Made by a program: the position numbers and the translations under genes. The notes beneath the pieces are model-generated. The model made no database searches and was not told where the DNA came from. It saw only the letters and a list, made by a program, of their open reading frames with translations. Below, one piece after another: positions 16,676-55,821 of a stretch of DNA of 64,000 nucleotides. Origin of the DNA: Candidatus Omnitrophota bacterium (lineage in GTDB: Bacteria; Omnitrophota; Gorgyraeia; Zapsychrales; JANLHA01); NCBI GenBank assembly GCA_040753435.1, contig JBFMEN010000058.1:18817-82816 (forward strand), given 5' to 3'. How positions within the stretch are numbered: position 1 is the stretch's first letter; each line of letters opens with the position of its first letter.

Positions 16676-16705
16676 GGTCATTTAAAAAATGACCAAAGAT
16701 TTTTT
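16676..16705 (+). terminator. Putative terminator after paralog B
   Basis: GGTCATTT-aaa-AAATGACC forms an 8-bp stem followed by AAGATTTTTT. Confidence 0.35.
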
Positions 16706-34228: not shown

Positions 34229-35305
34229 ATGTCTGATTGTGTGTTGGTTACAGGAGCATCCGGATTGATCGGGTCCCAAACTGTAGAGTTTTTTGCGGAA
34301 AAAGGATTCAAAGTCATTGGTATTGATAATGATATGCGCGCTTATTTCTTTGGTCCCGATGGCTCGACCTTATGGCGAAAAGTTGAACTTCAGAAGAAGT
34401 TTTCATCCTATGAACATCATGGTATTGATATTCGCGACAATGAGCAGTTAAAACATGTCTTTGAAGACTTTTCAGGAAACATCAAACTTATTGTCCATAC
34501 AGCCGCACAGCCTTCCCATGACTGGGCCGCGAGGGAGCCTTTGACTGATTTTGGGATTAATGCCTTCGCAACTCTCAACCTTCTTGAACTCACCCGCAAA
34601 CATTGCCCCAGGGCAATATTTATTTTCACCAGCACAAACAAAGTTTATGGAGATACCCCGAATTTTTTGCCATTGATAGAAAAGGAAACGCGTTGGGAGT
34701 TACCGGAAGGTCACCGATTTTTTGATGGAATTGACGAGACCATGAGCATTGATCAAAGCAAACATTCATTATTTGGGGCTTCGAAAGTGGCAGGGGATAT
34801 CCTTGTTCAGGAATATGGGAGATATTTCGGGATGAAAACAGCTTGTTTTCGGGGGGGATGTCTCACCGGTCCGAATCATTCAGGGGCGGAACTTCATGGG
34901 TTTTTATCCTATTTAATGAAATGTTGCGTTGAAAACCGTGTTTACAAAATTTTCGGCTATAAAGGCAAACAGGTTCGAGACAATATCCACTCTTTTGATT
35001 TAGTGAATGCTTTTTGGCATTTTTATCAAAATCCCAGGGAGGGTGAGGTTTATAATAGAGGCGGAGGCCGGGCCAACAGTTGTTCTATTCAAGAGGCAGT
35101 GGCCATTTGTGAAGAGGTTTCCGGGAAAAAACTCCGGACGGAATATGTGGAAACAAACCGTTCAGGAGATCATATCTGGTATATCTCGTCTTTGAGAAAA
35201 TTCATCAATCATTATCCCGGTTGGAGCATCACCATTAATCTAAAGGAGATATTGAAACAAATCCACATGCAGCTATCGAATGACAGCGAAAGGGAAAGAT
35301 TATGA
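34229..35305 (+). CDS. NAD-dependent sugar-nucleotide epimerase/dehydratase (CDP-paratose-2-epimerase-like SDR)
   Basis: Rossmann motif [12 protein letters not shown], an extended-SDR fold, and the catalytic YxxxK region (FGASKVAGD). Confidence 0.6.
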
Positions 35306-36243
35306 TTCATCATGAGGACAAAATCTATGTAGCCGGCCATCGGGGGATGGTTGGATCGGGTTTGGTCCGATTGCTTCATGAACGCGGCTTTCAAAACCTT
35401 GTCCTTAAAACCCATGAGGAGCTTGATTTATGTGACCAGAAAGCTGTGGCGGAATTTATGGCGCAAGAGAGACCCGATGTCGTGATTCTTGCCGCCGCTC
35501 GTGTCGGCGGTATCAAAGAGAATATGACCCACCTGGCCGAATTTCTTTACCAGAATTTGATGATTGAGACGAATGTGATCCACCAGTCGTATTTGAATGA
35601 TGTCCGCAAGCTTTGTTTTTTGGGAAGTTCGTGCATCTATCCCCGCGAATGCCCTCAGCCGATTAAGGAAGAATATTTAATGACCGGGCCGCTGGAACCG
35701 ACGAATGAGGGTTATGCTATCGCTAAGATCGCCGGAATGAAAATGGTCGAATTCTATCGTCGTCAATACCATCTCCAATGGATAAGCATCATGCCTTGTA
35801 ATTTATATGGCACGAATGACTCTTTTGATCTGGAAAGATCCCACGTGTTGTCGGCTTTGGTGAAAAAATTTGTGGATGCGGTCGATGACGGGAAAGAGGT
35901 TGTTGAAGTCTGGGGAACCGGTGCGGCCTTAAGGGAGTTTTTGCATGTTGATGACGCCGCAGATGGGATTTTATTTATTATGGATAATTATGATGGGGAC
36001 AAGACCATTAATTTGGGAAGCGGAACAGAAATCTCAATCAAGAATTTGGTGGATTTAGTAAAGATTTTAAGCGGTTATCAGGGCGGGATTCATTGGGATA
36101 ATGAAAAACCAGACGGAATGCTGCGGAAATGTATGGATGTTTCCCGGTTGAAATCTTTGGGGTGGAGACCGAAGATTTCTCTGGAGCAGGGAATCGAAAG
36201 AACGATTAAAGAGTACCGCCGGTTAAAAACCGTAAAGCAATAA
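35302..36243 (+). CDS. fcl: GDP-L-fucose synthase (GDP-4-keto-6-deoxymannose 3,5-epimerase/4-reductase)
   Basis: [19 protein letters not shown]…[14 protein letters not shown]…[35 protein letters not shown]…FLGSSCIYP is near-colinear with E. coli Fcl. Confidence 0.9.
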
Positions 36244-36258: not shown

Positions 36259-37026
36259 ATGGATGAACGGAAGCGGGTTAGGGTTCTTGATATTTTGGTG
36301 GATGTGATTGATATGGATATTGCAATTGATCGTGTTGAATCATGGATCAGGCAGAGAAAGAAAAGCTATATTTGTGTGGTTCCGGTTTCGACGATCGTTG
36401 AAGCTGTTGATGATAAGGATTATCGCCGGATTATCAACAATGCGGATATGGTCACGCCTGATGGAATGCCTATTGTCTGGAGCGGCCGGTTTAAAGGACA
36501 TTCGAAGATCAAAAGGGTCTGCGGCCCTGATTTTATGAAGAAAATCTGCAAGGATCCTTGTCTTGCTCACTGGAAACATTTTTTTCTTGGGACGACCCCG
36601 GCTACTTTAAAAAGGCTTGAGCGTAAACTCCGCCAATGGAATCCCGATATCCAGGTATGCGGTTCTTATGCCCCACCCGTTGACGAAAAAGCCCGGGCTG
36701 AAGATGAAAGCATTATTGCGCAAATTAACGGGGTCCAGCCCGACATTTTATGGGTGGGGATGGGCGCGCCCAAACAGGATTACTGGATGAAGCTGAATCG
36801 TGAACGGCTTGATGTTCCGGTGATGATTGGAGTGGGAGCCGCTTTTGATTTTCTGGCCGGGGTCAAGCCACGTGCGCCTGAATGGATGCAGCGAATCGGC
36901 ATGGAATGGTTTTTCCGCCTGTGTTGTGAGCCGAGAAGATTATGGCGGCGTTATGTCATTGGAAATGCAAGATTTTGTTTTGAAATGTTTAAAGAAATCT
37001 TCAGATTGAGGAACGTTAAGTCATAA
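36259..37026 (+). CDS. WecB/TagA/CpsF-family glycosyltransferase
   Basis: …ADMVTPDGMPIVW…ILWVGMGAPKQDYWM… matches GT26-family signatures. Confidence 0.75.
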   Translation: MDERKRVRVLDILVDVIDMDIAIDRVESWIRQRKKSYICVVPVSTIVEAVDDKDYRRIINNADMVTPDGMPIVWSGRFKGHSKIKRVCGPDFMKKICKDPCLAHWKHFFLGTTPATLKRLERKLRQWNPDIQVCGSYAPPVDEKARAEDESIIAQINGVQPDILWVGMGAPKQDYWMKLNRERLDVPVMIGVGAAFDFLAGVKPRAPEWMQRIGMEWFFRLCCEPRRLWRRYVIGNARFCFEMFKEIFRLRNVKS

Positions 37027-37280
37027 ATAACGGTATGAATAGTAATTCTGATTTACACCATCCCATGGGAAGTTTCCGTTACAAGAAAAATCCGGCGATA
37101 CCGGAAACCGGTATGTGCGTTTGAAGTTTTGATCCATATGATGATAAATCATTTGGGTAAAGTCAGGGGCTGCGTCCGTTTTGATCCGGAAAGGGTTGGT
37201 GATTTTTGGGGAGTTCCTGAGGCGCGCCAGATTATTATTTTTATCGATTGTTTTTAACCGCGACGAGAAAGGTGGGAAGA

Positions 37281-38120
37281 ATGATCGCAAAGATTGAAGA
37301 CCTGAAAAACAAGGCCGTTGAGATCAGAAAGCGAATGCTCGAGATGTGTATCAAAGCGGAGACCGGGCACGTTACTTCGTCGCTTTCATGCATCGACCTC
37401 CTGGTCGTTTTATATTATAGCGGTCACATGCATCATGATCCCCGCAATCCTGAATGGTCCGAACGGGACCGCTTTATTCTAAGTAAAGGCCAGGCCAGTC
37501 CGGCGCTGTACACCATTCTTGCGGATTGCGGTTATTTTAGCGAAAAGGATTTGGACAGCTTCGCCCAACCCGGAGGAAAGTTCGGAGTCCATCTTCAGGA
37601 CAGTGTTCCTGGGATTGAAATCACATCTGGTTCTCTGGGACAGGGATTCGGCACAGCGGCAGGGATGGCGCTGGGCGCTAAAATGGACCGCGATTTGCAC
37701 CTGGTCTTTACACTACTCGGCGACGGGGAGTGTTATGAAGGATCTATTTGGGAGACGGCCATGTTCGCGGCGCATAACCGTTTGAATAATCTGATCGCTA
37801 TTGTCGACCGGAACTATTTGTGCGTGACGGATTTTACCGAAAATCTGATTGAGCTTGAACCGATGAAGAGCAAGTGGGAGTCGTTCGGATGGGATGTGAC
37901 CTGGATTAACGGGCATTCGATGGAAGAGTTCATGACGGCATTGAATTCTGTCCGGTCCCGTCGTTCCAGCCGCCCGCTTGCGATTATTGCCGATACGGTC
38001 AAAGGGGAGGGAGTCGAATCGTTGTGTTACAATCCGCTTTGGCACGGCATCGCTCCCAAAGGAGCCGCGGCGATACGGGCGATGAGTGAATTTGAAAGGA
38101 GATTCTGCGGATATGAATAA
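37281..38120 (+). CDS. Transketolase, N-terminal (TPP-binding) subunit of a split transketolase
   Basis: …GHVTSSLSCIDLLVVLYY…GQGFGTAAGMALGAKM…LLGDGECYEGSIWE…; an RBS precedes the ATG at 37281. Confidence 0.8.
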   Translation: MIAKIEDLKNKAVEIRKRMLEMCIKAETGHVTSSLSCIDLLVVLYYSGHMHHDPRNPEWSERDRFILSKGQASPALYTILADCGYFSEKDLDSFAQPGGKFGVHLQDSVPGIEITSGSLGQGFGTAAGMALGAKMDRDLHLVFTLLGDGECYEGSIWETAMFAAHNRLNNLIAIVDRNYLCVTDFTENLIELEPMKSKWESFGWDVTWINGHSMEEFMTALNSVRSRRSSRPLAIIADTVKGEGVESLCYNPLWHGIAPKGAAAIRAMSEFERRFCGYE

Positions 38121-39048: not shown

Positions 39049-39211
39049 GAAAATCCAAAATCCGAAATTTGAAGGAAATTTAAAGCTGAAAACAGGAATA
39101 ATTTATTGTTTCTTGAATTTGTGATTTCAGGCTTCCTTCGGATTTCGCCTGCCTGCCGGCAGGGATTTATACTTTCGGATTTAACTTAATTCAAAAAAGG
39201 AATTAGTTTGG

Positions 39212-40693
39212 ATGTCCAGAGATGTTGTCCTCGTAAATCCCAGTAATAAAAAACAGGTTTATGCTACTGTCAGTGATTCTCTTGTCGGAATAGAACCTCC
39301 GCTGTGGACTGCGCTTTTAGCCGCTTTCCTTAAGGAGAGGGGCTTTTCAGTCGCCATTATCGATGCCGATGCTGAAAACTACAGTCCCGAAGAAACGGCG
39401 GACAGGGTCCTGGAATATGATCCGTTGCTGGTAGGACTTGGAGCGATCGGCTCAAACCCTTCCGCGGCTTCCACGCCCAAGATGGCCGCTGTCCGTGCTG
39501 TTGGGCAGTTACTGAAACAACGGGCGCCTGATTTAAGAAGTATCATTTATGGAATCCATCCTTCCGGTCTCCCTGAACAGACCTTGAGGGAGGAACCGGT
39601 TGATTTTCTTTGCCGGGGTGAAGCCTTTTTCCCCTTTGCCGAGTTTTTGAAACGGCTTAAAAAGGGAGACTGCGGGCCGGAGTATGATATTAAAGGGCTA
39701 TGGTATCGTCGAGGTAATACGATTGTGGATCATGGCTGGGCAGACATCGTACAGGATCTGGATTCGCTTCCTTTTGCCTCATGGGATCTTTTGCCAATGA
39801 ACAAATACCGCGCCCATAACTGGCATTGTTTCGGCCACATCAATGAACGTTCTCCATACGCGATGATCCACACAAGTCTCGGATGTCCCTATCATTGCCA
39901 TTACTGCAATATTCACGCGCTTTACGCCGGGAAGCCGGGCATCCGTTATCGGAGTCCTGAAAAGGTGGTGGAAGAAATCGATTTGCTTGTTGAACGATAT
40001 GGAATCAGGCATCTTAAATTCCTGGATGAATTGTTCATCATGAAACATCCGCGAGTCGAGAAGATTTGTGATTTGCTGATTGAGCGGAATTATGGTTTGA
40101 ATATCTGGGCCTACGCGCGCATCGACACGGTGACACCTGAATTACTAAAAAAAGCCAGGGCTGCCGGTATTAACTGGGTTTGTTACGGGATCGAGGCGGG
40201 AAGCAAGAACGTTCGGACCGGCGTATCGAAAGGGAGATTTGACCAGGAGGCGATTGACCGCGCGGTAAAGATGGCTTATGACGCGGGTATGTATATTCTG
40301 GGCAACTTTATGTTCGGCCTTCCTGATGACGACATGAGTACGATGCATGAAACGTTTGAATTGGCGAAAACTATCAACTGCGAATACATCAACTTTTATA
40401 CGACGATGGCTTATCCCGGATCGCCTCTCTATGATGACGCCGTAAAACAGGGACTGCGTCTGCCGGAAACATGGCTGGGTTTTTCCCAATTCAGCCGACA
40501 GACCGTACCGCTGCCGACGAAATATTTATCTCCCGAGGATGTGCTGGGTTTTCGGGACCGGGCTTTTGTCGAATATTTCAGCCGGCCTGAATATCAGGAA
40601 AAAATTCTCCGCATATTCGGGCAGGAAACTGTTGATCACGTAAAGCGCCTGTTAACAAAACCTTTACAACGTGATTTATTGGTTAGCAAATAA
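39212..40693 (+). CDS. B12-binding-domain radical SAM enzyme (class B radical SAM methyltransferase-like)
   Basis: An N-terminal cobalamin-binding Rossmann-like segment (VVLVNPS…LAAFLKERGFSVAIIDAD) is followed by the radical SAM cluster TSLGCPYHCHYCNI. Confidence 0.7.
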   Translation: MSRDVVLVNPSNKKQVYATVSDSLVGIEPPLWTALLAAFLKERGFSVAIIDADAENYSPEETADRVLEYDPLLVGLGAIGSNPSAASTPKMAAVRAVGQLLKQRAPDLRSIIYGIHPSGLPEQTLREEPVDFLCRGEAFFPFAEFLKRLKKGDCGPEYDIKGLWYRRGNTIVDHGWADIVQDLDSLPFASWDLLPMNKYRAHNWHCFGHINERSPYAMIHTSLGCPYHCHYCNIHALYAGKPGIRYRSPEKVVEEIDLLVERYGIRHLKFLDELFIMKHPRVEKICDLLIERNYGLNIWAYARIDTVTPELLKKARAAGINWVCYGIEAGSKNVRTGVSKGRFDQEAIDRAVKMAYDAGMYILGNFMFGLPDDDMSTMHETFELAKTINCEYINFYTTMAYPGSPLYDDAVKQGLRLPETWLGFSQFSRQTVPLPTKYLSPEDVLGFRDRAFVEYFSRPEYQEKILRIFGQETVDHVKRLLTKPLQRDLLVSK

Positions 40694-41821
40694 ATGGACT
40701 TAAACCGGCAGGATTGCCTGAAAAAAACATTTGCTGAAGATCTGCGGATTAAACGGCAATCCGAATTAGACGGGGTGATCGTCGGTTACTGGTCTTATTA
40801 TGAAAATCAATGTCTGAATAATCAGCGGTTCCTGCGTTCAGATTTCGGCACCAATGAAAATTGTTTGAAAAAATACAACGAGCTTTACGCGCGGGGTAGG
40901 GAAGAGAAGATCCATTTCCTGAGCCTCGACTTGATTGACGATTTCTCCAAGGTGGATCTTTTTGTTTTCTCGGACGTTCCGAAAAAGAACAGCCTGCTTG
41001 CCAAGAAGGCTTATGCCCAGAACAAGCCCATGTTTTTAATCCTTGAAGAGTCAGCGGTTGTCTATCCGAGAAACTGGGACTTGAAGAACCATGAGCCATT
41101 CGAGAAAATTCTGACCTGGGATGACAGGTTTGTCGATAATAAAAAATATTTTAAATTTAACCATTATTTTATCGCAACGCGAACAGTTCCCAGAAATATT
41201 GATGAAAAAAAGAAACTTTGCGTGACTATCGCGGCCAATAAAAAGTCGGCTCATCCTCTTGAACTCTATTCGGAAAGGGAACGCGCGATCCGGTGGTTTG
41301 AAAAATATCATCCGGAAGATTTTGACCTTTACGGTTTCGGCTGGGATGAACGGGCTTTTCCTATGGATATCCCGTTGATCAGATTATTAAACGGGCGCAA
41401 GATGAAGTTTCTCCGCAAATATCTCGCGCCGAAGTATCCGTCCTGGAGAGGCACTGTTAAAAAAAAGAGCGATATTCTCGGCCGATACTGGTTTTCGATC
41501 TGTTATGAAAACGCGAGGGATATTACCGGTTATATTTTGGAAAAGATATTCGATTGTTTTTTTTGCGGGACTGTTCCGGTCTACCGCGGCGCCGACAACA
41601 TCGGTGATTATATTCCCAAAGAATGCTATCTGGACCAGCGGGATTTCAAAAATTATGATGAGTTATATGACGTGATGAAGCGCATGTCACGGGAGGAGTA
41701 TCTGTCTTATCTGGACAACATTGAAGCGTTTTTAAACAGCGAAGCGGCCGGGATTTTCTCCAGTGAATATTTTGTCGGGCTTGTTTTGACCGAAATCCGA
41801 AAGTCATTAAATAAAGGATGA
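40694..41821 (+). CDS. GT10-like (alpha-1,3-fucosyltransferase-type) glycosyltransferase, tentative
   Basis: The C-terminal region YWFSICYENARDITGYILEKIFDCFFCGTVPVYRG resembles the conserved FENS…YVTEK…VPVV motif block of family GT10 fucosyltransferases. Confidence 0.45.
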   Translation: MDLNRQDCLKKTFAEDLRIKRQSELDGVIVGYWSYYENQCLNNQRFLRSDFGTNENCLKKYNELYARGREEKIHFLSLDLIDDFSKVDLFVFSDVPKKNSLLAKKAYAQNKPMFLILEESAVVYPRNWDLKNHEPFEKILTWDDRFVDNKKYFKFNHYFIATRTVPRNIDEKKKLCVTIAANKKSAHPLELYSERERAIRWFEKYHPEDFDLYGFGWDERAFPMDIPLIRLLNGRKMKFLRKYLAPKYPSWRGTVKKKSDILGRYWFSICYENARDITGYILEKIFDCFFCGTVPVYRGADNIGDYIPKECYLDQRDFKNYDELYDVMKRMSREEYLSYLDNIEAFLNSEAAGIFSSEYFVGLVLTEIRKSLNKG

Positions 41822-41824
41822 AGT

Positions 41825-42739
41825 ATGGGATTGCTTCCGGGGCATTTGCATATACTCGCGATTGAGCAGGGGAAACGGCCTTGTATTGACGGGGACGTGC
41901 TGACTTTGGGTGAGCAGGCGGTGTATGCGACTTTAAAAGAAGTTCATGAAATTTACCGGCGGCATGATCTGGCGTTAAATGAACTCCCTGATGATTTCGA
42001 TACGGCAAACAAAATCCCCGCCTGGAAACAGACAGTTTATGAAAAGAATACCAATGCCCATGCCGCTTTGACGCTGCTTGGGGCAAGGCGCGTTTATTCC
42101 GTTGATGTGAATGATTATGAGAATCCTGATTTTATTTTTGATTTAAATGATAAAGTTGACAATGCCTTTCACGAAAGGTTCGACGTCGTCTTTGATTGCG
42201 GGACGCTGGAACATGTATTTAACGTTCCCGAAGCACTGAAGAACATTTGCCGTATGCTTAAACCAGGAGGCATGGTCGTCCTGATGAATCCGGCCAGCAA
42301 CGCCGTTGATCATGGTTTTTATTCTTTCAGCCCGACGTTATTCTATGATTTTTTTCAATCGAACGGATTTCAGGAATTCAGTTGTTATTTAATGGAAGTG
42401 AATAATTATAATTACCTGAAAAAGGGACGGGTTTTCCGTTACAAACAGGTCGGGAGGGAATATCCGTTGAACCTCGCGCAAGGCATGGATGTCTGCTTCT
42501 TCGCAAAGAAACGCAAATCGTTGACTGAAGTCGAGTATAACCCGCCGGCCCAATCCGTTTATCCGGCATATTTCTGGAATAAAGAAAAGTATCGAGAAGG
42601 TCTTTTTAAAACGACGAAGATGAAGGAATTATTAAAAAAGATTGAGCTGACCACATCATCCTTCAGACCGGTTTGGATCGACAGGTTGGTGAAGGACAGA
42701 AAGCGGCGAGCCGGTTTGGAGTATCTGGGAAGGTTCTAG
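41825..42739 (+). CDS. Class I SAM-dependent methyltransferase
   Basis: FDVVFDCGTLEHVFNVPEALKNICRMLKPGGMVVLMNP is methyltransferase motif II/III-like. Confidence 0.6.
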   Translation: MGLLPGHLHILAIEQGKRPCIDGDVLTLGEQAVYATLKEVHEIYRRHDLALNELPDDFDTANKIPAWKQTVYEKNTNAHAALTLLGARRVYSVDVNDYENPDFIFDLNDKVDNAFHERFDVVFDCGTLEHVFNVPEALKNICRMLKPGGMVVLMNPASNAVDHGFYSFSPTLFYDFFQSNGFQEFSCYLMEVNNYNYLKKGRVFRYKQVGREYPLNLAQGMDVCFFAKKRKSLTEVEYNPPAQSVYPAYFWNKEKYREGLFKTTKMKELLKKIELTTSSFRPVWIDRLVKDRKRRAGLEYLGRF

Positions 42740-44434
42740 ATGATCAAAGAGGAAATTAAAAAATTCAGAGTTTTGTATCTGATACTGAGGCCTGCGTTCA
42801 GGGCTGGCCGTTATTTAAAGGAACTGACGCGATATTTTTTGGCCAGATTTTTTTCCCGCCCCTATTTTGGGCGTTACATGCTGGCGGGATTGGCATGGCC
42901 GGAGCGTCAGGAGGCCATGAAAAGTTTGTTAAGAAAAGAATTGGCCGCCTCCGGCAAGGAATTCAATATTCTGGAAATAGGGACATGGGCCGGCTCTTCT
43001 GCTTTTATCTGGGCCGGCATTTGTAAAGAAGAGGGAAAGGGCAAAATTTTTTGTGTCGACCATTGGCGGGCTTCGCCAAACAGTCCCGAAGTAATGAAAA
43101 AGGCTGTCAAAAATGACCGCATTTTTAACTTGTTTTTACATAACATGAGAGCGGGTGGGCATGAGAATGTTTTTTCGTTGAGGGGACCCAGTGATGAGTT
43201 GCTGAAAGTATTAAAGCCTGAAAGTTTTGATTTTATTTATGTCGATGGAGACCACGGCTATTCCCAGGCCAGAAAAGATATCCTTAGCGCCGTTTCATTG
43301 TTAAAGGATGGGGGAATTATATGCGGAGATGATTTGGACGTCCATCCAGATTCCGTCGAACAGGAATTTCTTCAACAGCATAAAGAAGAGGATTATGTCC
43401 AGTACCCGTCCACCGGGGAATATTTACATCCGGGGGTAGCGCTGGTCATTAAAGAGATATTTGATGAGGTTGACTGTTGGAACGGGTTTTGGGCTGTTAG
43501 AAAGAATCAATCCGGCTGGGAAAAAACAGGTCTGAAAACAGCCGGCGCCGGTTCTCTTGAAATCAGTGGTTTTGATTTTTTTATTGATCGTGAAAAAGGA
43601 AAGCCTTGTCTGGTTGCTGGTAACGCCCCGAGCATTCAGAGTTTTCCTTTCAACGATTTTAAAGGTGTTTCGATCTTGATGAATTCAGGGCCCGTGTTAT
43701 TGAAAGGGAAAATAGCTCCTGATTATTGGATGTCCGCCAATTATTATTATCCGATCCCTGATAAAGACTTTCATGAGATTAATCGTTATATGAATACGGT
43801 TTTTATTTTTTCAGATACGGCTGTTTATCTTAAAAGAAACTCTTATAACCATTCTTCTATTGATCAGAAATTAAATATCCCCTGGTTCGCTTTTGATGTT
43901 TTTCACAGCAATGGAGAACCGTGCCAGCCACGGCGTGGATGTTGCGAGGTCCTGAAACAGTATCCGGACCGCCTCAGCATTTTTGAATTTTTAAAAAAGC
44001 ATTATCAGACGCGATCGACGATGCCCACGCCGAATACGGCCGTCGTTTTTTCCCTCGCGTTTGCCGTCTTGATGGGCTGTTCTCCGATCTATGTCAACGG
44101 AGTTGAGCTTCCTCAACAGATGAAAGATTACCGGCAGGGCGGATTTTTAGGGTTATGCGGAAGCGCGAATCCTTATGCCAACGGAATATATAATTGGTAT
44201 TTAATCCTTGGCGCATGGATAAAAAAGTGGTTCCTGAAGAAAGAAGCACCTTCTGCATTTGTCGAGAATATCGACGATACCCTTGAAGCCTTTCGTTATT
44301 TATATGATGTCGCCTGTTTCAGGGGGCAGAAGATTTATAATTTGAGCGAGACTTCCTTGCTTGAGAAGGAAAAAGTGTTGCCGTATCTTGATCCGGACAA
44401 GGTTCGTCCTAATCCGCTAAACAGGAAGGGCTAA
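42740..44434 (+). CDS. Class I SAM-dependent methyltransferase (TylF/Methyltransf_24-like) with ~300-aa C-terminal domain of unknown function
   Basis: …FNILEIGTWAGSSAFIWA…FDFIYVDGDHGYSQARKDILSAVSLLKDGGIICGDDL…. Confidence 0.6.
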   Translation: MIKEEIKKFRVLYLILRPAFRAGRYLKELTRYFLARFFSRPYFGRYMLAGLAWPERQEAMKSLLRKELAASGKEFNILEIGTWAGSSAFIWAGICKEEGKGKIFCVDHWRASPNSPEVMKKAVKNDRIFNLFLHNMRAGGHENVFSLRGPSDELLKVLKPESFDFIYVDGDHGYSQARKDILSAVSLLKDGGIICGDDLDVHPDSVEQEFLQQHKEEDYVQYPSTGEYLHPGVALVIKEIFDEVDCWNGFWAVRKNQSGWEKTGLKTAGAGSLEISGFDFFIDREKGKPCLVAGNAPSIQSFPFNDFKGVSILMNSGPVLLKGKIAPDYWMSANYYYPIPDKDFHEINRYMNTVFIFSDTAVYLKRNSYNHSSIDQKLNIPWFAFDVFHSNGEPCQPRRGCCEVLKQYPDRLSIFEFLKKHYQTRSTMPTPNTAVVFSLAFAVLMGCSPIYVNGVELPQQMKDYRQGGFLGLCGSANPYANGIYNWYLILGAWIKKWFLKKEAPSAFVENIDDTLEAFRYLYDVACFRGQKIYNLSETSLLEKEKVLPYLDPDKVRPNPLNRKG

Positions 44435-44914
44435 ATGACTCTTAAAGATATCGATTTGATTGTTTATGACTTTGATGGCGTAATGACGGACAATCGCGTC
44501 CTTGTTTTTCAAAATGGACAGGAAGCTGTTTTTTGCAACCGTTCTGACGGAATGGCTGTTTCTTTTTTAAAAGAGAAAGGAGTCCGTCAGGTTATCCTTT
44601 CGACTGAGGAAAACGGGGTGGTTTCAGCCCGGGCCAGAAAACTTGGCATTGAATGTATTCAGAATGCCCATGACAAGAAAAAAGAACTTGTTGGTTTCGT
44701 CAAAAAAAACGGGATAGATCTTGAAAAGGTTTTGTATATCGGCAATGACCTTAACGACCTTGAGGCGATGAAGGTAGCCGGTTATGCCATGTGCCCCGAG
44801 GATGCCGCGGATGAAATCAAAAATTTAGTTAATCAGGTTATTCCGGAAAAAGGGGGGCATGGTGTTATTCGACGATTATGGGATATTTTAACCACAGGTG
44901 AAAAAGATGAATAG
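44435..44914 (+). CDS. HAD-IIIA sugar-phosphate phosphatase (KdsC / nonulosonate-9-phosphate phosphatase-like)
   Basis: DLIVYDFDGVMTDN carries the HAD motif I (DxDGV). The size is 159 aa, and YIGNDLNDLEAM is motif IV. Confidence 0.75.
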   Translation: MTLKDIDLIVYDFDGVMTDNRVLVFQNGQEAVFCNRSDGMAVSFLKEKGVRQVILSTEENGVVSARARKLGIECIQNAHDKKKELVGFVKKNGIDLEKVLYIGNDLNDLEAMKVAGYAMCPEDAADEIKNLVNQVIPEKGGHGVIRRLWDILTTGEKDE

Positions 44915-45662
44915 GGCGATTTTTATTACAGTGAGAACTGGCTCATCCCGTCTTCCTCAAAAGGCCTTGAAAGAGATTTGCGGTGCGCCGGCCATCGTTC
45001 AGTTGATCAGAAGGGTGAGGCATTCGGTCATGGCAGAAGGGATCGTTCTTTGCACAACAGAGCTTCCGGAAGATGATATATTAGTCGAGATTGCGAAAAA
45101 TGAAGAGATCGGCTTTTTCAGGGGAAGCGTGAAAGATAAATTAATAAGATGGCATGGCGCGGCCAGTCAATTCAAAGTTGAATTTTTCGTGACTGCCGAC
45201 GGGGACGATCTTTTATGTGAACCGGAACTGATCGACCTGGCTTTCCGGCAGTATGAGAGGGAATCGCCCGATTTTATTGAAGGAACAGGGCTTGTCTGCG
45301 GATCATTTACTTATGGGATAAAGGCCTCGGCGTTAAGTAAGGTTTGCGAAATTAAAGATTCAGAAGATACTGAAATGATGTGGGTTTATTTTAAGGACAC
45401 CGGTTTGTTCGAGTGCGCCGAATTGAAAGATGTTCCCGATATTTTTAAAAGACCGGAAATCCGGATGACGCTGGATTATGAGGACGATCTCAGGTTTTTC
45501 AGGACGATCTTCAATCATTTTAAAGGCGGATATGCCGGCCTTCGGGAAGTGATCGAGTATCTGGATCAACATCCCGACGTGATTAAGATCAATCAGTATC
45601 TTCAGGAAAGGTTTCTCGAGAACCAGAAGAAAAGGACAACGTTGATTTTAAAAAGGAAGTAA
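44898..45662 (+). CDS. CMP-sugar cytidylyltransferase (NeuA/SpsF-like, CTP_transf_3 fold)
   Basis: AIFITVRTGSSRLPQKAL… is an N-terminal glycine/arginine nucleotide-binding loop typical of acylneuraminate/KDO cytidylyltransferases. Confidence 0.65.
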   Translation: MKKMNRAIFITVRTGSSRLPQKALKEICGAPAIVQLIRRVRHSVMAEGIVLCTTELPEDDILVEIAKNEEIGFFRGSVKDKLIRWHGAASQFKVEFFVTADGDDLLCEPELIDLAFRQYERESPDFIEGTGLVCGSFTYGIKASALSKVCEIKDSEDTEMMWVYFKDTGLFECAELKDVPDIFKRPEIRMTLDYEDDLRFFRTIFNHFKGGYAGLREVIEYLDQHPDVIKINQYLQERFLENQKKRTTLILKRK

Positions 45663-45665
45663 GGC

Positions 45666-46883: not shown

Positions 46884-46892
46884 AAGGAACAT

Positions 46893-47948: not shown

Positions 47949-47968
47949 AGTAATAACCGGAGAAAAAA

Positions 47969-48829
47969 ATGAAATTTTCGGAACTCAAAAGTTTGTATCT
48001 TATTGCAGAGATCGGGATTAATCATAACGGCGATATGCAGATCGCCAAGAAACTGATCGATGCCACTCATGCATGTTCATGGCACTGCGTCAAGTTTCAA
48101 AAACGTAATCCGGACGTATGCGTTCCGGAAGATCAAAAGAATGTAATGAGGGATACGCCCTGGGGACGAATGACATATCTGGAATACAAGTACCGCATGG
48201 AGTTCGGTAAGGAGGAGTACGATTACATTGACAAGTACTGCCGTGAAAAGCCCATCTCCTGGACGGCATCGGTATGGGATATGGACAGCCTCGGGTTTCT
48301 TTTGAATTACGATGTCCCGTTCATAAAGATCCCGTCCGCTCATTTGACGAACAAAGAGATGCTGGAGGCGTGCGGGAAGTCGGGCAAATCAATAATCCTC
48401 TCAACCGGGATGTCCACTCTCGATGAAATCGATTCGGCCGTGGATCTTTTAAGAAAACTCGATGTGGACTTTTTGCTGATGCACACTAATTCCAGTTATC
48501 CCACGCCCACCAATGAATTAAATCTTAACTGTATCAAAACTTTACGTGAACGATACGGCTGTGAGATCGGCTACAGCGGGCATGAGTATGGTTTGGAACC
48601 GACTGTTTTTGCCGCTGTTCTCGGAGCGAAAGTCATCGAGCGCCATATTACTCTCGATCATGAAATGTGGGGGACCGATCAGAAGGCCAGTATCGCTCCT
48701 ATGGGCATGGATATGCTTTATAAGCGTATCAGAGATGTTTCGGCCATTTTAGGGGATGGCCTGAAAAGGGTCACGGAGAGTGAGATTTCCGTCATTCAGC
48801 GGTTGAGAGGAAATACCATTAAAAAATGA
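47969..48829 (+). CDS. NeuB-family nonulosonic/ulosonic acid synthase (PEP-condensing), no C-terminal SAF domain
   Basis: LIAEIGINHNGDMQIAKKLIDA…VKFQ…YSGHEYGLEPTVFAAVLGAKVIERHITLD is colinear with the NeuB catalytic TIM barrel. It ends at 286 aa. Confidence 0.8.
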   Translation: MKFSELKSLYLIAEIGINHNGDMQIAKKLIDATHACSWHCVKFQKRNPDVCVPEDQKNVMRDTPWGRMTYLEYKYRMEFGKEEYDYIDKYCREKPISWTASVWDMDSLGFLLNYDVPFIKIPSAHLTNKEMLEACGKSGKSIILSTGMSTLDEIDSAVDLLRKLDVDFLLMHTNSSYPTPTNELNLNCIKTLRERYGCEIGYSGHEYGLEPTVFAAVLGAKVIERHITLDHEMWGTDQKASIAPMGMDMLYKRIRDVSAILGDGLKRVTESEISVIQRLRGNTIKK

Positions 48830-50313
48830 AAGAAAAAAGAGATTTTATAGTGATCGGATTAGGCAATATTCTGCATACTCTGATAGTATTCGCCTCGATC
48901 CGTTTAATGACATTTTTCCTTTCGCCAAAAGAGATGGGGGAATATTCATTATTTTATGCTTTCGGCACCATGTTTTTTTCATTGTTCATTGTTCCGGCGT
49001 CACTTTACATGCAGCGAAAGGTATTGGAATGGGCGGAAGCCGGCACACTCGCGGCGTATACTCAAAAGTTTTTGATTTATCTTTCAGCCGTCGGGATTTT
49101 ATCCGGGGCCCTGGCAGTCTTGATAAAAATTGTATTTGATATTGCCCTGCCTTTTTCTAACAGCACGTTTTTTATCCTGGTGAGCGCGGTCACTGTTTTC
49201 ATGAACGGCAACGCTTTTTTTTTCAGCACGTTCAATCTGTTTCAGATGCGGTTCAAATATGTGATATTTTCTTCGTTGACGGCCCTGTTCATTTTTATCG
49301 GAGGTGCAGTTTTCGTATTTTCCTTCGGCAGAAATTCTTTTAACTGGATATCCGGCCAGGTTGTCGGTCATCTTTTGATGATGGCGTTAAGCGGCATCCT
49401 TTTTTTCCGTTTTATATCATCAAAAGAGAGCAGGAAAGGTCTATGGACATGGTCGCGAAATAAAGAAGATATTTCTGGTTTTTTAACTTTTGTTTTTCCA
49501 GTCGTAGCCGGAAGTTTTGTTCTGTGGATTCAAAGCGAATCTTACCGGTTTTTCCTTGGAAGGTTGGCGGGAGTAGAAATGCTGGGGCTTTTTTCTGTAG
49601 GCTTCACCATGGCCAACCGGGTGGTTGAAAAGTTTGATACACAGTTCTCCAATTTTTATAATCCGATTTTTTATAAAGATATTATTGCCAATGACAGTGA
49701 TGAGCAGAAGATAAAGGCATGGGCCAATTACGCTCAAATGTACATCCCCTCGATCTTGATCGCCGTGCTGTTCGTCTTTTCTTCTGCGTCTTTGCTGGAA
49801 AAGATCCTCATCGACCCGCAGTATCACGGGGTTTCCGTAGAAACAATCCGCTGGGGAAGTGTGGTCATGGGACTTTTTTCTCTTTTGTCGTTGTACCGGA
49901 TGATCGGTATCGCCAAATTAAAAATGGAAGGAATTCTTATCCCCTATATTCTTGGCGCTGCCGTGATGACTTTTTCCATCGTTTTTCTGGCGCCTCTTGC
50001 GCCTGTCACGGGAACAGGCTTTTCAATGGCGGCAGGCGCCTTTGTCTCTACCTTCACATTGCATATTGAAATGAAGAAGATCCTTCCCGTAAGGTTTCCA
50101 AAGAAGATGTTATTGAAGACATCGCTTTTTTCCGTCCCGCTGATCAGTTATTTAATGATTGATTCCTGTGTTCCTAAAGATCTCATCAGTTGTTTGTTTT
50201 TCCTGATCGTTTTGGGAGGATATACGGCGTTTTCCATTTTCTATCTTACAAACAATGAAATCAGTTCAAGAAATCTTAAAAATAATGCGGATTTAATAAA
50301 GGTGGCGCAGTGA
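48826..50313 (+). CDS. Wzx-type polysaccharide/oligosaccharide flippase (MOP superfamily)
   Basis: About 12-14 TM helices; the N-terminal segment …LGNILHTLIVFASIRLMTFFLSPKEMGEY… is typical of PST-family flippases. Confidence 0.65.
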   Translation: MKEKRDFIVIGLGNILHTLIVFASIRLMTFFLSPKEMGEYSLFYAFGTMFFSLFIVPASLYMQRKVLEWAEAGTLAAYTQKFLIYLSAVGILSGALAVLIKIVFDIALPFSNSTFFILVSAVTVFMNGNAFFFSTFNLFQMRFKYVIFSSLTALFIFIGGAVFVFSFGRNSFNWISGQVVGHLLMMALSGILFFRFISSKESRKGLWTWSRNKEDISGFLTFVFPVVAGSFVLWIQSESYRFFLGRLAGVEMLGLFSVGFTMANRVVEKFDTQFSNFYNPIFYKDIIANDSDEQKIKAWANYAQMYIPSILIAVLFVFSSASLLEKILIDPQYHGVSVETIRWGSVVMGLFSLLSLYRMIGIAKLKMEGILIPYILGAAVMTFSIVFLAPLAPVTGTGFSMAAGAFVSTFTLHIEMKKILPVRFPKKMLLKTSLFSVPLISYLMIDSCVPKDLISCLFFLIVLGGYTAFSIFYLTNNEISSRNLKNNADLIKVAQ

Positions 50314-51296
50314 ACTGTGAATCTGCCATGGTTTCAATTATCATGCCTGTTTATAATGCACGGGCTTTCATCGCTGAAAGCATTGAATCTGTTTTGGGGC
50401 AGAGTTATGGCCATTGGGAATTGATCATTGTGGACGATTGCTCCCGGGATGATACCGTTCGTATTGCCCGGCGGTATGAGGATGTGGATTCACGGGTACG
50501 GGTCGTTACGTTAACCCAGAACAGCGGCCGGCCGGCTGTTGCGCGCAATCATGGTTTGCGGCTGGCCAGTGGGCAATATGCGGCATTTCTGGATGCCGAT
50601 GATCTCTGGAATCCCGGAAAGCTCAAGCGACAGGTGGAGTTCTTTCAGGATAAACCCGGGAAGGCCCTCGTCTTTGGGAAGTTCAGGGTTATGTGCAACG
50701 ATCCCCGTTTTGACGGTAAAGAGATTGGCCCGTCAAAGGGTATAAATTGGGAAAAATCGGTTTACGAACGTTTGTTAAAGTATGATTTTATTGTGAATTC
50801 TTCCGTCATGATCGATCTGACAAATATCGCGCAAGAAGAACATTTTTTCGATGAAGATCCGAAACTGGCTTTTGTTGAAGACTGGGATTTGTGGTTACGA
50901 ATAGCCAGGAACGGTCTTTTCGGCTATATTCCTGAAACATCAGGCATTTACCGGATGCACGGGGCAAATTTTTCATTGGGCCCGGCAAGGCTGGATCGTG
51001 CAATGGCCGTTGTCGATAAACACGTCGCCAAAGGTTTTGTTGACCACGTTGCCGCCGATCGCGCCAGGGCCAATATTTTGTTCACGGTTGCCTGGAGCAT
51101 TGTTGATCAGGATGCGTCAAAGGCCGGAAAATTATTCGGGAAGGCGATGCGCCTGGCCAAAGTGTTTTCAAAGATTTACTTGATGAACGCGCTCGGACGT
51201 TTTCTTGCATTATTTCCAGGTGTGTGCGTATGGATGAAGCAGAACTCAATTGACCGCAAGGTTGGAAAATTATTTTTTAACCACCAGGATTTATAA
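50310..51296 (+). CDS. Family 2 glycosyltransferase
   Basis: VSIIMPVYNARAFIAESIESVLGQSY…LIIVDDCSRDDT…FLDADD (DXD). Confidence 0.8.
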   Translation: MNCESAMVSIIMPVYNARAFIAESIESVLGQSYGHWELIIVDDCSRDDTVRIARRYEDVDSRVRVVTLTQNSGRPAVARNHGLRLASGQYAAFLDADDLWNPGKLKRQVEFFQDKPGKALVFGKFRVMCNDPRFDGKEIGPSKGINWEKSVYERLLKYDFIVNSSVMIDLTNIAQEEHFFDEDPKLAFVEDWDLWLRIARNGLFGYIPETSGIYRMHGANFSLGPARLDRAMAVVDKHVAKGFVDHVAADRARANILFTVAWSIVDQDASKAGKLFGKAMRLAKVFSKIYLMNALGRFLALFPGVCVWMKQNSIDRKVGKLFFNHQDL

Positions 51297-53199: not shown

Positions 53200-53280
53200 T
53201 ACGGGAGGAATATTTTGATTATTATCCTGATTCTTGCTATTTTAATAATATTATTCATTTAAAATTAATCGAGGTTGTCA

Positions 53281-54702
53281 ATGGGACGTTTTGGAAAATT
53301 TTGTATCCGGATGATTTACATGTTGACTGACGCCTGTTTTGGCTATCTGGCGATCTTTCTTGCATGTTTAATCCGTTCTCACAAGGTCCCGTTTAATGTC
53401 AATCTGCATAGTGTTTTATTCGATGCGGAGAATCCGTTCAGACTTGTTTTTGCGTTGTGGCTTTTGATGGTCATTATTATAAACCGCGCCCATCGCTTAT
53501 ATCATACGGACCGGATGTCGAGTGAAATCAGTGAATTGCTGAAAGTCCTTCAGTCCAATTTCATCGGGATGGTGCTGGTTATCGTCGCCAGTTATCTTTT
53601 GAAAGTAGAGGGGCTTCCGAGAACGGTTGTAGCTATCGGATTCCTGTTGATGGCCCTGTTTTTTTCTCTGTGGCGGGTTATCAAGCGGTTTATCGTCGAA
53701 TCGCTTGTGATTCGAGGATACAATAACCGGAATGTTTTGATCATCGGCGCCGGCAAGGCGGGAAGAGGATTGAAGGAAGAAATCGAACGGTATCCTGGAA
53801 TGGGGCTGCGCGTGAAGGGATTCCTGGATGACGCTCCGGAACATGTTGATGAAGATCTGCGGGGCCTTGTTTTAGGGAAGATTATTGATTTTCGTCGTAT
53901 CGCAACCCAATATTTTATTGACCACGTCTTTGTGACGGCTTATCACACTGAAGAAGTTTTTTTAAAGCTGTTGCTGCAGGCCCGGAAATTCGGCATTGCG
54001 GTTGATGTCGTTCCATTTGGTTACCGCATGATTTCAGGGGATCTTGTGAAGCACAATATAGGATTTGTTCCGCTATTGTCATATTCTCCAAACGGAAAAG
54101 GCCAGCATAATATCGGGAAGAGAATTTTTGATTTGATCGTTGCGTGGTCAGGGTGTATCTTGCTGGCCGTCCCTTTTTTAGCGATCGGGATTCTTATTAT
54201 CCTTGATGGCGCCGGTCCTGTCTTTTATTTTTCTGAACGCTTCGGACGGGGAGGCAAGCGTTTTAAAATGATGAAGTTCCGGACCATGATTGTGGGTGCG
54301 GATCGGATGCAGGAAGAACTCCGGGAGCGAAATGAGGCGGATGGGCCCATTTTTAAAATGCGCGATGATCCGCGGGTGACCCGATTCGGAAAGTTTTTAA
54401 GGAAATACAGCCTGGATGAATTGCCGCAGCTTTTCAATGTCATTAAAGGAGACATGAGCCTCGTCGGCCCGAGACCGTTTCCTGTTGATCAGATTGAATC
54501 AAGTGATTTGCGCCAGTTGCGCCGTCTTGGTGTACGTCCCGGAATTACAGGCCTGTGGCAGGTGAAAGGACGAAGCGACGCTCCCTTCGGGCGGTTGCTT
54601 CGCTGGGACATCTGGTATATCAATAACTGGTCCTTTGGACTGGATTTAAGCATTCTCTGGCAAACAATCCCCGCCGTGGTTAAGGGAAGAGGAGCGTACT
54701 AA
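53281..54702 (+). CDS. Polyprenyl-phosphate sugar-1-phosphate transferase (WbaP/WcaJ-type initiating transferase)
   Basis: N-terminal TM helices and a Rossmann-like domain precede the C-terminal bacterial sugar-transferase domain (…[25 protein letters not shown]…SLVGPRP…PGITGLWQV). The ATG at 53281 is preferred over the track's TTG at 53275. Confidence 0.85.
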
Positions 54703-54767: not shown

Positions 54768-55778
54768 ATGTCACAAAAAACCGCGCTGATTACCGGCGTT
54801 ACTGGCCAGGACGGATCTTATTTAACGGAATTTTTATTGAATCGAGGGTATAAAGTTTACGGGCTCATCCGGCGTTCGAGTTCTTTCAACACCGGAAGGA
54901 TCGATCATTTGTATCAGGATGTGCACATCAAGGATGCAAATTTGCGTCTTGTTTACGGCGATTTAAGCGATGCGAGTTCTTTGTCCCGTCTGCTGAAGGG
55001 TATCGACCCAGATGAGATCTACAATCTGGGCGCCCAAAGCCATGTGCGGGTAAGTTTCGATATCCCTGAATATACTGCGGATATTACAGCGTTAGGGACA
55101 ATCCGTTTGCTGGAGGCGATTCGCGACACCGGGATCAGAACTAAATTTTATCAGGCATCAAGTTCAGAGATGTTCGGCAAGGTTCAGGAAATTCCGCAAA
55201 AGGAGACGACACCTTTTTATCCACGCAGTCCTTATGGTGCGGCGAAGGTCTATGCCTATTGGATGACTGTGAATTACAGGGAGGCTTATAAGTTATTTGC
55301 CTGTAACGGCATCCTTTTTAATCACGAATCCCCAAGACGGGGGGAAACATTCGTTACCAGAAAAATTACCAAAGCGCTTGCCCGTATTAAACATGGGGTT
55401 CAGGACAAGTTGTATCTGGGAAATCTGGACGCGAAGAGAGATTGGGGCTATGCGGATGATTATGTCGAGGCTATGTGGTTGATGCTTCAAGCCGGTGAGC
55501 CGGATGATTATGTGATCGCCACGGGAGAGACACATTCTGTTCGTGAATTTTTACAAGAGGCCTTCGGGTATGCCGGACTGGACTGGAAGAAATATGTTGA
55601 AATCGATTCGAGATATTTGCGGCCGACCGAGGTTGACATTCTTATCGGTGACAGTACAAAAGCCCGGCAAAAGCTTGGATGGAAACCGCGTGTGGCTTTT
55701 AAAGAACTGGTCAAAATGATGGTTGAGGCGGACATGAGATCGGTCGAAAAAGAACTTTACGGGACGAAAAAGATGTAA
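54768..55778 (+). CDS. gmd: GDP-mannose 4,6-dehydratase
   Basis: [46 protein letters not shown]… is near-colinear with E. coli Gmd. Confidence 0.9.
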
Positions 55779-55821
55779 AATCAGGCATTGCCTACCGTTG
55801 AAAGGAAGGGAATCTCTCTCT

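Follow-up and report, generated by a model that had tools for sequence, protein, structure and literature searches.

Thiamine-dependent enzymes that append a two-carbon branch to a 4-ketosugar are known from the yersiniose A pathway, in which YerE catalyzes two-carbon branching of CDP-3,6-dideoxy-4-keto-glucose and YerF is the reductase, and from avilamycin biosynthesis, in which AviB1 and AviB2 are the E1-type branching enzymes. We analyzed a 64,000-nucleotide stretch of DNA from a Candidatus Omnitrophota bacterium (assembly GCA_040753435.1, contig JBFMEN010000058.1; the whole stretch is called the window below), in which a putative thiamine enzyme, a split transketolase, precedes the gene for a B12-binding-domain radical S-adenosylmethionine (SAM) enzyme. 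The radical SAM gene is the first of four nearly abutting open reading frames (ORFs) on the plus strand (39212-40693, 40694-41821, 41825-42739 and 42740-44434 in the ORF list of the window), and its stop codon abuts the start codon of the second, which encodes a GT10-like transferase.

The original prediction had read these four genes as one unit producing C- and O-methylated sugars of the fucose type. The four ORFs and their domain calls (B12-binding radical SAM enzyme, GT10, class I methyltransferase and Methyltransf_24) are borne out by Pfam. We propose, however, that the block 39212-44434 is the junction of three modules in a Wzx-type glycan-assembly island and not one methyl-fucose unit, a reading to which we give a probability of roughly 0.5. 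The earlier functional grouping was wrong for the radical SAM enzyme, whose partners appear to be the split transketolase and a GDP-heptose/3-dehydratase cassette, and incomplete for the fourth ORF; it had missed both the upstream transketolase partnership and a CMP-ulosonic-acid pathway. The features on which the argument turns are as follows.

37248..38120, plus strand: split transketolase, N-terminal thiamine-diphosphate-binding subunit (TktN); Pfam Transketolase_N, NCBIfam transketolase 261 bits
38086..39048, plus strand: split transketolase, C-terminal pyrimidine-binding subunit (TktC); NCBIfam transketolase 165 bits, DXS 137 bits
39212..40693, plus strand: radical SAM enzyme with a B12-binding domain, from a widespread family without a name; Pfam B12-binding and Radical_SAM
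40694..41821, plus strand: GT10-family, fucosyltransferase-like protein; Pfam Glyco_transf_10 above cut-off, GT10 fucosyltransferases in the PDB
41825..42739, plus strand: divergent class I SAM methyltransferase (MT1); Pfam Methyltransf_12/23/11/31 above cut-offs
42740..43549, plus strand: Methyltransf_24 domain, N-terminus of a 564-residue fusion protein; Pfam 73.6 bits, residues 78-198
43550..44434, plus strand: predicted sialyltransferase/Maf-like (MptE-like, DUF115) domain, C-terminus of the same protein; from family, Pfam, AlphaFold2 (AF2) model, Foldseek and NeuB linkage

The radical SAM enzyme and its conserved neighbours

The radical SAM enzyme is 100% identical to a protein of a metagenome-assembled genome labelled 'Candidatus Omnitrophota' at NCBI, and it belongs to a large family with 7073 matches at an expectation value (E) <= 1e-10, hundreds of them at 55-75% identity, none of which carries an informative name. 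One genome was scanned for each GTDB species, which gave 547 relatives, and the loci of the best 80 (46-62% identity; L003-L082 in our numbering) were compared, some counts being made on 82 loci. Hosts of the best 80 are found in Omnitrophota, Planctomycetota, Desulfobacterota, Chloroflexota, Nitrospirota, Cyanobacteria, Elusimicrobia, bacteria of the candidate phyla radiation, Nanoarchaeota and Methanoperedenaceae, and include the cultured cyanobacteria Tumidithrix elongata and Floridaenema fluviatile.

The neighbours of this family are highly recurrent. Among the 52 loci whose radical SAM gene is flanked on both sides by four or more genes, a DegT-family protein occurs within seven genes in 49, a thiamine-enzyme beta subunit (Transket_pyr/Transketolase_C) in 43 and an HddA-like GHMP kinase in 43, with all three together in 37. 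The alpha partner of the thiamine enzyme, counted within six genes across the 80 loci, belongs in 26 to the transketolase N subunits and in 26 to the pyruvate dehydrogenase E1-alpha type, the latter scoring 334 bits against the NCBIfam model for pyruvate dehydrogenase E1 alpha. NCBIfam places the kinase of the cassette nearest HddA and its nucleotidyltransferase nearest HddC, and two further clusters are GmhA and GmhB. The short-chain dehydrogenase/reductase (SDR) most often found directly before the radical SAM gene, here SDR1, scores 370 bits against PDB 6vo6, which is presumably Cj1427. The Fcl-like protein of the window (35302-36243) belongs to an ortholog group (about 50% identity) with members beside the radical SAM gene in 42 of these loci. 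When the cassette DegT proteins were aligned by MAFFT with an equivalog-level RfbH (723 bits) as anchor, 64 of 72 had His in the column of the pyridoxal 5'-phosphate (PLP)-binding Lys, as in bona fide RfbH; the ColD/E1 sugar 3-dehydratases are marked by His in place of this Lys.

From these neighbour identifications (HddA/HddC-like, SDR1, His-type DegT, thiamine subunits and Fcl-like), the canonical cassette is predicted to run from GDP-heptose activation through C4 oxidation and C3 deoxygenation to the thiamine enzyme, the B12-binding radical SAM enzyme and an Fcl-like reductase. The capsular GDP-heptose pathway of Campylobacter jejuni shares the activation, C4-oxidation, C3-deoxygenation and reduction steps, catalyzed by GmhA, HddA, GmhB, HddC, the C4-dehydrogenase Cj1427, whose function has been described, a C3-dehydratase of serotype HS:5 that acts on the Cj1427 product with PLP and L-glutamate, and Cj1428-type C4-reductases (PMC10680097). 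It differs in having neither a radical SAM nor a thiamine enzyme, and the window itself has no heptose-activation genes. A literature search on radical SAM enzymes and cobalamin with heptose, transketolase or O-antigen found no paper on a radical SAM/thiamine/heptose cassette. Bradyrhizose, a carbocyclic C10 sugar that could be composed of a heptose, a C2 and a C1 unit, was considered as a product and dropped, the sole paper proposing a gene cluster for it making no mention of a radical SAM enzyme or a transketolase. A polyprenyl-phosphate hexose transferase (AglJ/ArnC-like GT2, cluster c6) lies within six genes of the radical SAM gene in 21 of the 80 loci, so the modified sugar may be loaded onto a lipid carrier in some organisms, for transfer outside the cytoplasm.

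In the window, TktN, TktC and the radical SAM enzyme are co-linear, and each is most similar to its counterpart in the trio of loci L003 and L004 (74%, 62-66% and 61-62% identity, respectively). There the trio continues into HddA-HddC; the synteny of the window with these loci stops at the radical SAM stop codon, which is the start of the GT10-like gene. Homologs of the GT10-like protein, both methyltransferases, the phosphatase, the cytidylyltransferase, NeuB and the SPASM-domain radical SAM protein encoded downstream occur in only 0-1 of the 82 loci. Gene order and identity show that the radical SAM gene and the two split-transketolase genes just before it were inherited together, as a co-linear trio, in what is predicted to be the same nucleotide-sugar pathway as the Fcl-like reductase. 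On the same comparison it would belong, historically and functionally, with the genes upstream and not with the GT10-like gene and the methyltransferases.

The closest relative locus, L001 on a related Omnitrophota contig, has a radical SAM enzyme 72% identical to that of the window within the same UvrD-MTHFR-SDR-Fcl-like-WecG flank, together with sulfate-activation genes, a sulfotransferase, a His-type DegT and a GT10 gene. In that locus (11522-16720) the middle genes have been swapped for sulfate activation (APS kinase and CysD/CysN-like) and a sulfotransferase, and the comparison presents the island as a hypervariable, recombining glycan locus beside the MTHFR and UvrD-helicase genes. Because synteny breaks at the radical SAM stop codon and the content of L001 has been exchanged, the island appears to be a recombination mosaic.

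The thiamine enzyme is best explained, by analogy with YerE, as a two-carbon branching enzyme that would act on an NDP-4-keto sugar. This is suggested by the interchange of E1-type and transketolase-type alpha subunits, by the persistence of the pair in the window in the absence of heptose genes, and by the homologs in Aliarcobacter skirrowii (GCA_033796225.1, L165 3172-10026). In this bacterium the order is RfbF-RfbG-TktN-TktC-SDR-RfbH-GT10, with TktN and TktC homologs of 44% and 35% identity between an equivalog-level RfbG (CDP-glucose 4,6-dehydratase) and RfbH. The A. skirrowii locus is thus a candidate pathway for a yersiniose-like branched 3,6-dideoxyhexose, in which the split transketolase would replace YerE and the GT10-like gene follows directly. 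The logic shared with yersiniose A and avilamycin is a 4-keto, often 3-deoxy, NDP-sugar combined with a thiamine enzyme and an SDR reductase. The yersiniose pathway differs in that YerE is a flavoprotein of the acetolactate synthase type, whereas the enzymes here are a split transketolase or E1 alpha/beta pair, the sugar here would be GDP-linked and a B12-binding radical SAM enzyme is added. In a freshwater metagenome (L096, 1764-10334) the order is DUF115-like, ABC exporter, MT1, B12-binding radical SAM enzyme, TktN, TktC, GT10-like and GT2; the MT1, radical SAM, TktN, TktC and GT10-like proteins match those of the window at 34-39% identity over full or nearly full length, the DUF115-like protein matches at 30% across 192 residues, and the contig ends within the GT2 ORF. 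The pairing of radical SAM enzyme and transketolase therefore spans radical SAM subfamilies.

Relatives and predicted chemistry of the radical SAM enzyme

The enzyme scores 60.8 bits against Pfam B12-binding (PF02310, cut-off 32.1) and 61.8 bits against Radical_SAM (cut-off 29.5), and its CX3CX2C motif (C225, C229 and C232) is invariant across 25 homologs. The AF2 model (predicted local distance difference test score, pLDDT, 87.7) has an N-terminal domain with alternating strands and helices. Its closest fold is AprD4 (E 1.4e-24, template-modelling (TM) scores 0.71/0.76, 21% identity), with TsrM, MgmA, OxsB, CysS and TokK behind by a small margin. AprD4 is also the first PDB match by sequence (E 2.8e-16), ahead of MgmA 9ccb (E 1.1e-13); the N-terminal domain alone gave chance-level matches only among PDB sequences.

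All NCBIfam models score far below their cut-offs. Those on top are HpnJ (155 bits, nearly full length; cut-off 578) and BchE (146 bits; cut-off 481), both of which cover the N-terminal domain too, and the AprD4 model NF033070 (72.8 bits; cut-off 500) aligns to the core only, residues 194-415. Every methylase model falls under HpnJ and BchE, including Sden_1168 (108 bits, cut-off 575), PhpK (84, 600), the RiPP C-methyltransferase (80, 282), MgmA (70, 360), KedN5 (32, 700), HpnR (30, 650) and Trp-2-C-methyltransferase (25, 500). No hopanoid or bacteriochlorophyll context was seen around the radical SAM gene.

The apramycin enzymes AprD4/AprD3, which catalyze C3'-deoxygenation, offer a parallel in that a radical SAM enzyme acts on a sugar with an SDR partner, and AprD4 is the closest solved structure and sequence. 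GenK and Fom3, the class B radical SAM C-methyltransferases, share with the window enzyme the B12-binding domain and radical SAM core, and the substrate of Fom3 is also nucleotide-activated; the window enzyme comes near no methylase family cut-off. Characterised B12-binding radical SAM enzymes are mostly methylases, 9ccb being a glutamine C-methyltransferase, and AprD4 does not bind cobalamin (PMC12931638). The nearest characterised relatives of the window enzyme are non-methylases, HpnJ and BchE by profile and AprD4 by sequence and fold. The comparison with methylase families thus speaks against the C-methylation of the original prediction, by a small margin where AprD4 is concerned, and C-methylation is to be regarded as possible and unproven. 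Methylation is kept in consideration because the B12-binding domain is well conserved and GenK-type methylation would fit 3-deoxy, 4-C-branched, chain-extended sugars, of which yersiniose, erwiniose and caryophyllose are known. At least one extra B12-binding radical SAM gene of another subfamily lies within six genes of the family member in 15 of the 80 loci, and several such enzymes are often present in the glycan loci of these mostly anaerobic organisms.

The GT10-like transferase, the fusion protein and the ulosonic-acid genes

Pfam PF00852 matches the C-terminal domain of the GT10-like protein with 38.6 bits (cut-off 23.9; residues 256-341 only), and its sequence and a 33-member family profile retrieve only five PDB proteins, all GT10 fucosyltransferases (among them Helicobacter pylori FucT 2nzw, E 3e-14, FUT9 and plant FucTA) and all aligned over one block of about 90 residues. 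The predicted GT10 similarity therefore survives Pfam, PDB sequence and family-profile searches. The motif YWFSICYEN...GYILEK aligns with YKFNLCFEN...GYVTEK of FucT, and Asn273, Tyr280, Glu283 and Lys284 correspond to FucT N240, Y246, E249 and K250, so that the donor-binding motif block of this alpha-1,3-fucosyltransferase is conserved. By this family signature 40694-41821 is assigned as a predicted GT10 member. The protein is named GT10 at NCBI and has 929 homologs, full-length at 41-59% identity, which sit with gmd-like and fcl-like genes or with other NDP-6-deoxy-sugar pathways, often near a B12-binding radical SAM gene of another subfamily, a transketolase pair or NeuB. In marine and other metagenomes (L118-L128, L131, L133, L134, L154 and L158), from unrelated organisms, GT10-like, B12-binding radical SAM-like, DUF115-like, NeuB, DegT, fcl and gmd genes recur together in a mix similar to that of the window, the radical SAM-like proteins being 24-36% identical to that of the window.

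MT1, the third ORF, scores above the Pfam cut-offs of four class I methyltransferase families, and its full-length homologs of 36-40% identity adjoin a B12-binding radical SAM gene in L095-L097. The fourth ORF had been taken for a second methyltransferase. Its Methyltransf_24 domain stands, over residues 78-198 only, but it is not a simple methyltransferase: homologs retrieved with the whole protein match the methyltransferase half, no more than 52% of its length, and residues 271-564 (294 residues) form a separate domain, for which an exhaustive search collected 200 representatives, mostly stand-alone proteins of about 240-325 residues. Pfam MptE-like (DUF115, PF01973) matches 41 of 50 aligned members at E <= 0.01, the best at 5.5e-10. 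With the AF2 model of the domain (pLDDT 90), the first 16 Foldseek matches in the PDB are Cst-II/Cst-I, Maf and a Pasteurella sialyltransferase, all with probability 1.0 and with TM-scores of 0.36-0.52, and a sialyltransferase-like fold is assigned on this model. Of 56 metagenomic loci that encode the domain and are 5 kb or longer, 43 also have a NeuB homolog, up to 53% identical to that of the window, and the order GT10-like, DUF115-like domain, (HAD), NeuB recurs in L083 and L164. Because of fold, family and NeuB neighbourhood, the fourth ORF is read as a putative CMP-ulosonic-acid transferase fused to a methyltransferase and serving the pathway downstream. The GT42 enzymes Cst-II/Cst-I and the Maf nonulosonic-acid transferases (1ro7, 5mu5) are the best folds for this MptE-like, NeuB-linked family; they differ in having 12-16% identity and a TM-score of about 0.5, and in that the window domain is fused to Methyltransf_24 and has no flagellin context.

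Five genes at 44435-48829, encoding a HAD phosphatase, a CMP-type cytidylyltransferase, a Lys-type DegT, a radical SAM-SPASM protein and a NeuB without the SAF domain, constitute a predicted CMP-ulosonic-acid pathway. In the NCBIfam alignment of NeuB, only positions 2-274 of 329 are matched. The DegT protein has Lys at the PLP column (SFENTK), in contrast to the His of most cassette proteins, and the presence of the HAD phosphatase implies that, as in Kdn synthesis, the substrate is phosphorylated. The SPASM-domain radical SAM protein and the aminotransferase resemble the BtrN/aminotransferase pair in their logic, and could provide an oxygen-independent route to an amino-ulosonic acid. The methyltransferase-sialyltransferase-like fusion, together with the module of SAF-less NeuB, HAD and radical SAM-SPASM proteins, points to an unusual ulosonic acid in Omnitrophota.

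The single-strand glycan island spans about 34229-55778 and runs from an SDR, the Fcl-like SDR, WecG, TktN and TktC through the four ORFs to the ulosonic-acid genes, Wzx, glycosyltransferases and gmd. Its remaining features are listed below.

34229..35305, plus strand: SDR, NDP-sugar epimerase-like, nearest CDP-tyvelose 2-epimerase; Pfam Epimerase, PDB 9rl0 121 bits, syntenic in L001
35302..36243, plus strand: Fcl-like GDP-4-keto-6-deoxy-sugar epimerase/reductase ('SDR2'); NCBIfam Fcl 432.8 bits, below cut-off 500
36259..37026, plus strand: WecG/TagA/CpsF-family glycosyltransferase; Pfam Glyco_tran_WecG 213 bits, NCBIfam TIGR00696 above cut-off
44435..44914, plus strand: HAD phosphatase, KdsC/Kdn-9-P phosphatase-like; NCBIfam KDN-9-P phosphatase 93.9 bits and KdsC 85 bits, both below cut-offs
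44898..45662, plus strand: CMP-sugar-type cytidylyltransferase; Pfam CTP_transf_3 54.6 bits
45666..46883, plus strand: DegT-family aminotransferase with catalytic Lys, LegC/PseC-like; Pfam 282 bits, NCBIfam LegC 216 bits and PseC 209 bits
46893..47948, plus strand: radical SAM/SPASM protein; Pfam Radical_SAM and SPASM
47969..48829, plus strand: NeuB-family ulosonic acid synthase without C-terminal SAF domain; Pfam NeuB 238 bits
48826..50313, plus strand: Wzx-type flippase; Pfam Polysacc_synt, weak; 36% identical homolog in L083 in the same context
50310..51296, plus strand: GT2 glycosyltransferase; Pfam 132 bits
51299..52024, plus strand: third methyltransferase, Methyltransf_24; Pfam 38.7 bits
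52045..53199, plus strand: GT4 glycosyltransferase; Pfam
53275..54702, plus strand: polyprenyl-phosphate glycosyl-1-phosphate transferase, the initiating enzyme; Pfam Bac_transf 216 bits, NCBIfam TIGR03025 385 bits, above cut-off
54768..55778, plus strand: GDP-mannose 4,6-dehydratase (gmd); Pfam GDP_Man_Dehyd 500 bits

The island thus has three SAM methyltransferase domains (MT1, the N-terminus of the fourth ORF and 51299-52024). The third had been called TylF-like; it matches Methyltransf_24 and gave no match to TylF (PF05711), the PDB or NCBIfam, so the description holds at clan level only. The placement of fcl at the start of the island and gmd at its end is borne out, with an Fcl-like gene and gmd bracketing it; the Fcl-like protein falls short of the cut-off of the Fcl model (NF047922), matching Escherichia coli Fcl 1bws (308 bits) about as well as 7anh (299 bits; deposited as GDP-L-fucose synthase). 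Directly after gmd (55798-57486) lies the gene for a 562-residue protein with an FGE-sulfatase domain, which is formylglycine-generating-enzyme-like. A small GC-rich hairpin (CCTGCC-TGCC-GGCAGG) at 39148-39163 falls within the 163-bp gap between TktC and the radical SAM gene. Terminator-like sites are not enriched in the region, and since promoter and terminator scans did no better than shuffled expectation, operon boundaries could not be set. An Rfam search of the whole window for riboswitches and other families returned no match.

Proposed assembly and competing explanations

We propose that the thiamine enzyme would add a two-carbon branch to an NDP-4-keto sugar, analogous to yersiniose formation, the substrate here being most simply GDP-4-keto-6-deoxymannose supplied by gmd, and that the radical SAM enzyme would carry out a radical step on an unactivated carbon of that sugar. 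For this step, C-methylation of the GenK type and a non-methylating reaction (AprD4-type dehydration or HpnJ-type rearrangement) are rated equally, each somewhat short of even odds, with the small remainder left to something else. The GT10-family enzyme, with a GDP-sugar donor, would add either L-fucose (from gmd and fcl) or the 6-deoxy sugar after its remodelling. The C-terminal domain of the fourth ORF would transfer the CMP-activated ulosonic acid made by the five genes downstream, and the Methyltransf_24 domain of this protein, MT1 and the third methyltransferase would O-methylate the glycan. Judged from gene content, the most likely product is a Wzx-flipped repeat unit begun by the phosphoglycosyl transferase and extended by the WecG-type, GT10, sialyltransferase-like, GT2 and GT4 enzymes. 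Its sugars most likely include an ulosonic acid, which may be aminated, and either L-fucose or a remodelled GDP-6-deoxy sugar, with O-methyl groups in addition. The fucosylated, multiply methylated glycan of the original prediction is plausible on this basis, given gmd, the Fcl-like gene and the three methyltransferase domains; its radical C-methylation is one of the two roughly equal possibilities just named. A more far-reaching and doubtful version is that the radical SAM-thiamine pair marks an unrecognised multi-phylum pathway, found mostly in anaerobes, in which a GDP-heptose (here a GDP-6-deoxyhexose) would become a 3-deoxy, C-branched, radical-modified 'higher' sugar of the yersiniose/erwiniose/caryophyllose type, and the GT10-like enzyme would transfer this non-fucose sugar beside the ulosonic acid handled by the fusion protein.

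Several observations weigh against the three-module reading. The cassette is truncated in the window, which lacks HddA, HddC, SDR1, GmhA/GmhB and a His-type dehydratase, so that the substrate here is uncertain: a search of all 64 kb for HddA, HddC, SDR1, GmhA/GmhB, E1-alpha and the polyprenyl-phosphate GT2 gave a best E of 0.13, and the sole DegT is not of the cassette type, since its identity to the DegT proteins of the radical SAM loci does not exceed 39%, and the median among those proteins is about 43-47%. The radical SAM gene of L001 stands in a locus with no transketolase. In the GT10-like protein the family profile aligns only residues ~254-343, and the N-terminal two thirds, unlike the motif block shared with H. 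pylori FucT, is not alignable even with this profile, including the acceptor domain and the catalytic base, which in FucT is Glu95. The C-terminal domain of the fourth ORF scores 19.9 bits against PF01973, below the cut-off of 34.6, and its fold matches have TM-scores of only 0.46-0.51. The neighbourhood counts come from our own ORF calling and BLASTP clustering and not from curated annotation.

Four other explanations were weighed against it. It is unlikely, though the best placed of these, that the enzyme is an AprD4-like dehydratase without cobalamin methyl transfer, which would deoxygenate a sugar diol to a keto or aldehyde compound for extension by the thiamine enzyme. AprD4 leads the PDB by both sequence and fold, its substrate is a sugar and thiamine carboligases require a carbonyl acceptor; the AprD4 model, however, aligns to the core alone where HpnJ and BchE extend further, the fold margin over TsrM, OxsB and CysS is small, and the cassette already has a His-type C3-dehydratase for deoxygenation. 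Less probable again is the unit originally predicted, a GenK/Fom3-type C-methylase acting on a fucose-type GDP-sugar that the GT10 enzyme transfers and two methyltransferases O-methylate, independently of the transketolase. The predominance of methylases among characterised relatives, the good B12-binding score and the abutting stop and start codons favour it, and the grouping is partly supported by a few distant loci that again combine a B12-binding radical SAM enzyme, an MT1 homolog, a transketolase pair and a GT10-like gene (L096, with the order MT1-B12-TktN-TktC-GT10, L095/L097, and L163, where a GT10 homolog of 59% identity directly follows a B12-binding radical SAM gene). But the GT10-adjacent radical SAM enzymes of L163 and L096 are only 25-34% identical to that of the window and so belong to other subfamilies, 81-82 of the 82 family loci have no GT10 or methyltransferase homolog, the methylase profiles rank below HpnJ and BchE, and half of the fourth ORF is sialyltransferase-like.

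The other two explanations concern the transketolase. Some archaea and anaerobes use split transketolases for housekeeping, and the cassette is usually a GDP-heptose pathway, so the pair could be a supply enzyme providing sedoheptulose-7-phosphate for heptose synthesis, with no direct chemical link to the radical SAM enzyme. This is improbable, given that 26 loci have instead the pyruvate dehydrogenase E1-alpha type, which is incapable of making sedoheptulose-7-phosphate, that the A. skirrowii pair lies inside a CDP-3,6-dideoxyhexose pathway without heptose genes, and that the window keeps the pair without such genes as well. Least probable of all is that the transketolase-radical SAM trio is the leftover of a cassette cut by recombination, with no part in the glycan. 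The absence of HddA/HddC, the Cj1427-like SDR and the His-type dehydratase from the window and the break in synteny right after the radical SAM gene would fit a remnant; yet all three ORFs are intact and well conserved, L001 keeps an intact radical SAM gene at the same island position, and the genome may have the absent genes in another place.

With the three-module reading preferred, the significance of the locus lies mainly in the radical SAM family. Tailoring of sugars by radical SAM enzymes is known from antibiotics (GenK, AprD4 and DesII) and hardly documented for cell-surface glycans, and this family occurs in several hundred species of bacteria and archaea, always in glycan loci and with recurring, chemically coherent partners. 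With its breadth and its cultured carriers the family is a tractable lead: Tumidithrix elongata and Floridaenema fluviatile, along with the related transketolase/GT10 locus of Aliarcobacter skirrowii, render the question directly testable. A defined function would give a name to thousands of 'radical SAM protein' annotations and could show how branched or chain-extended sugars arise without oxygen.

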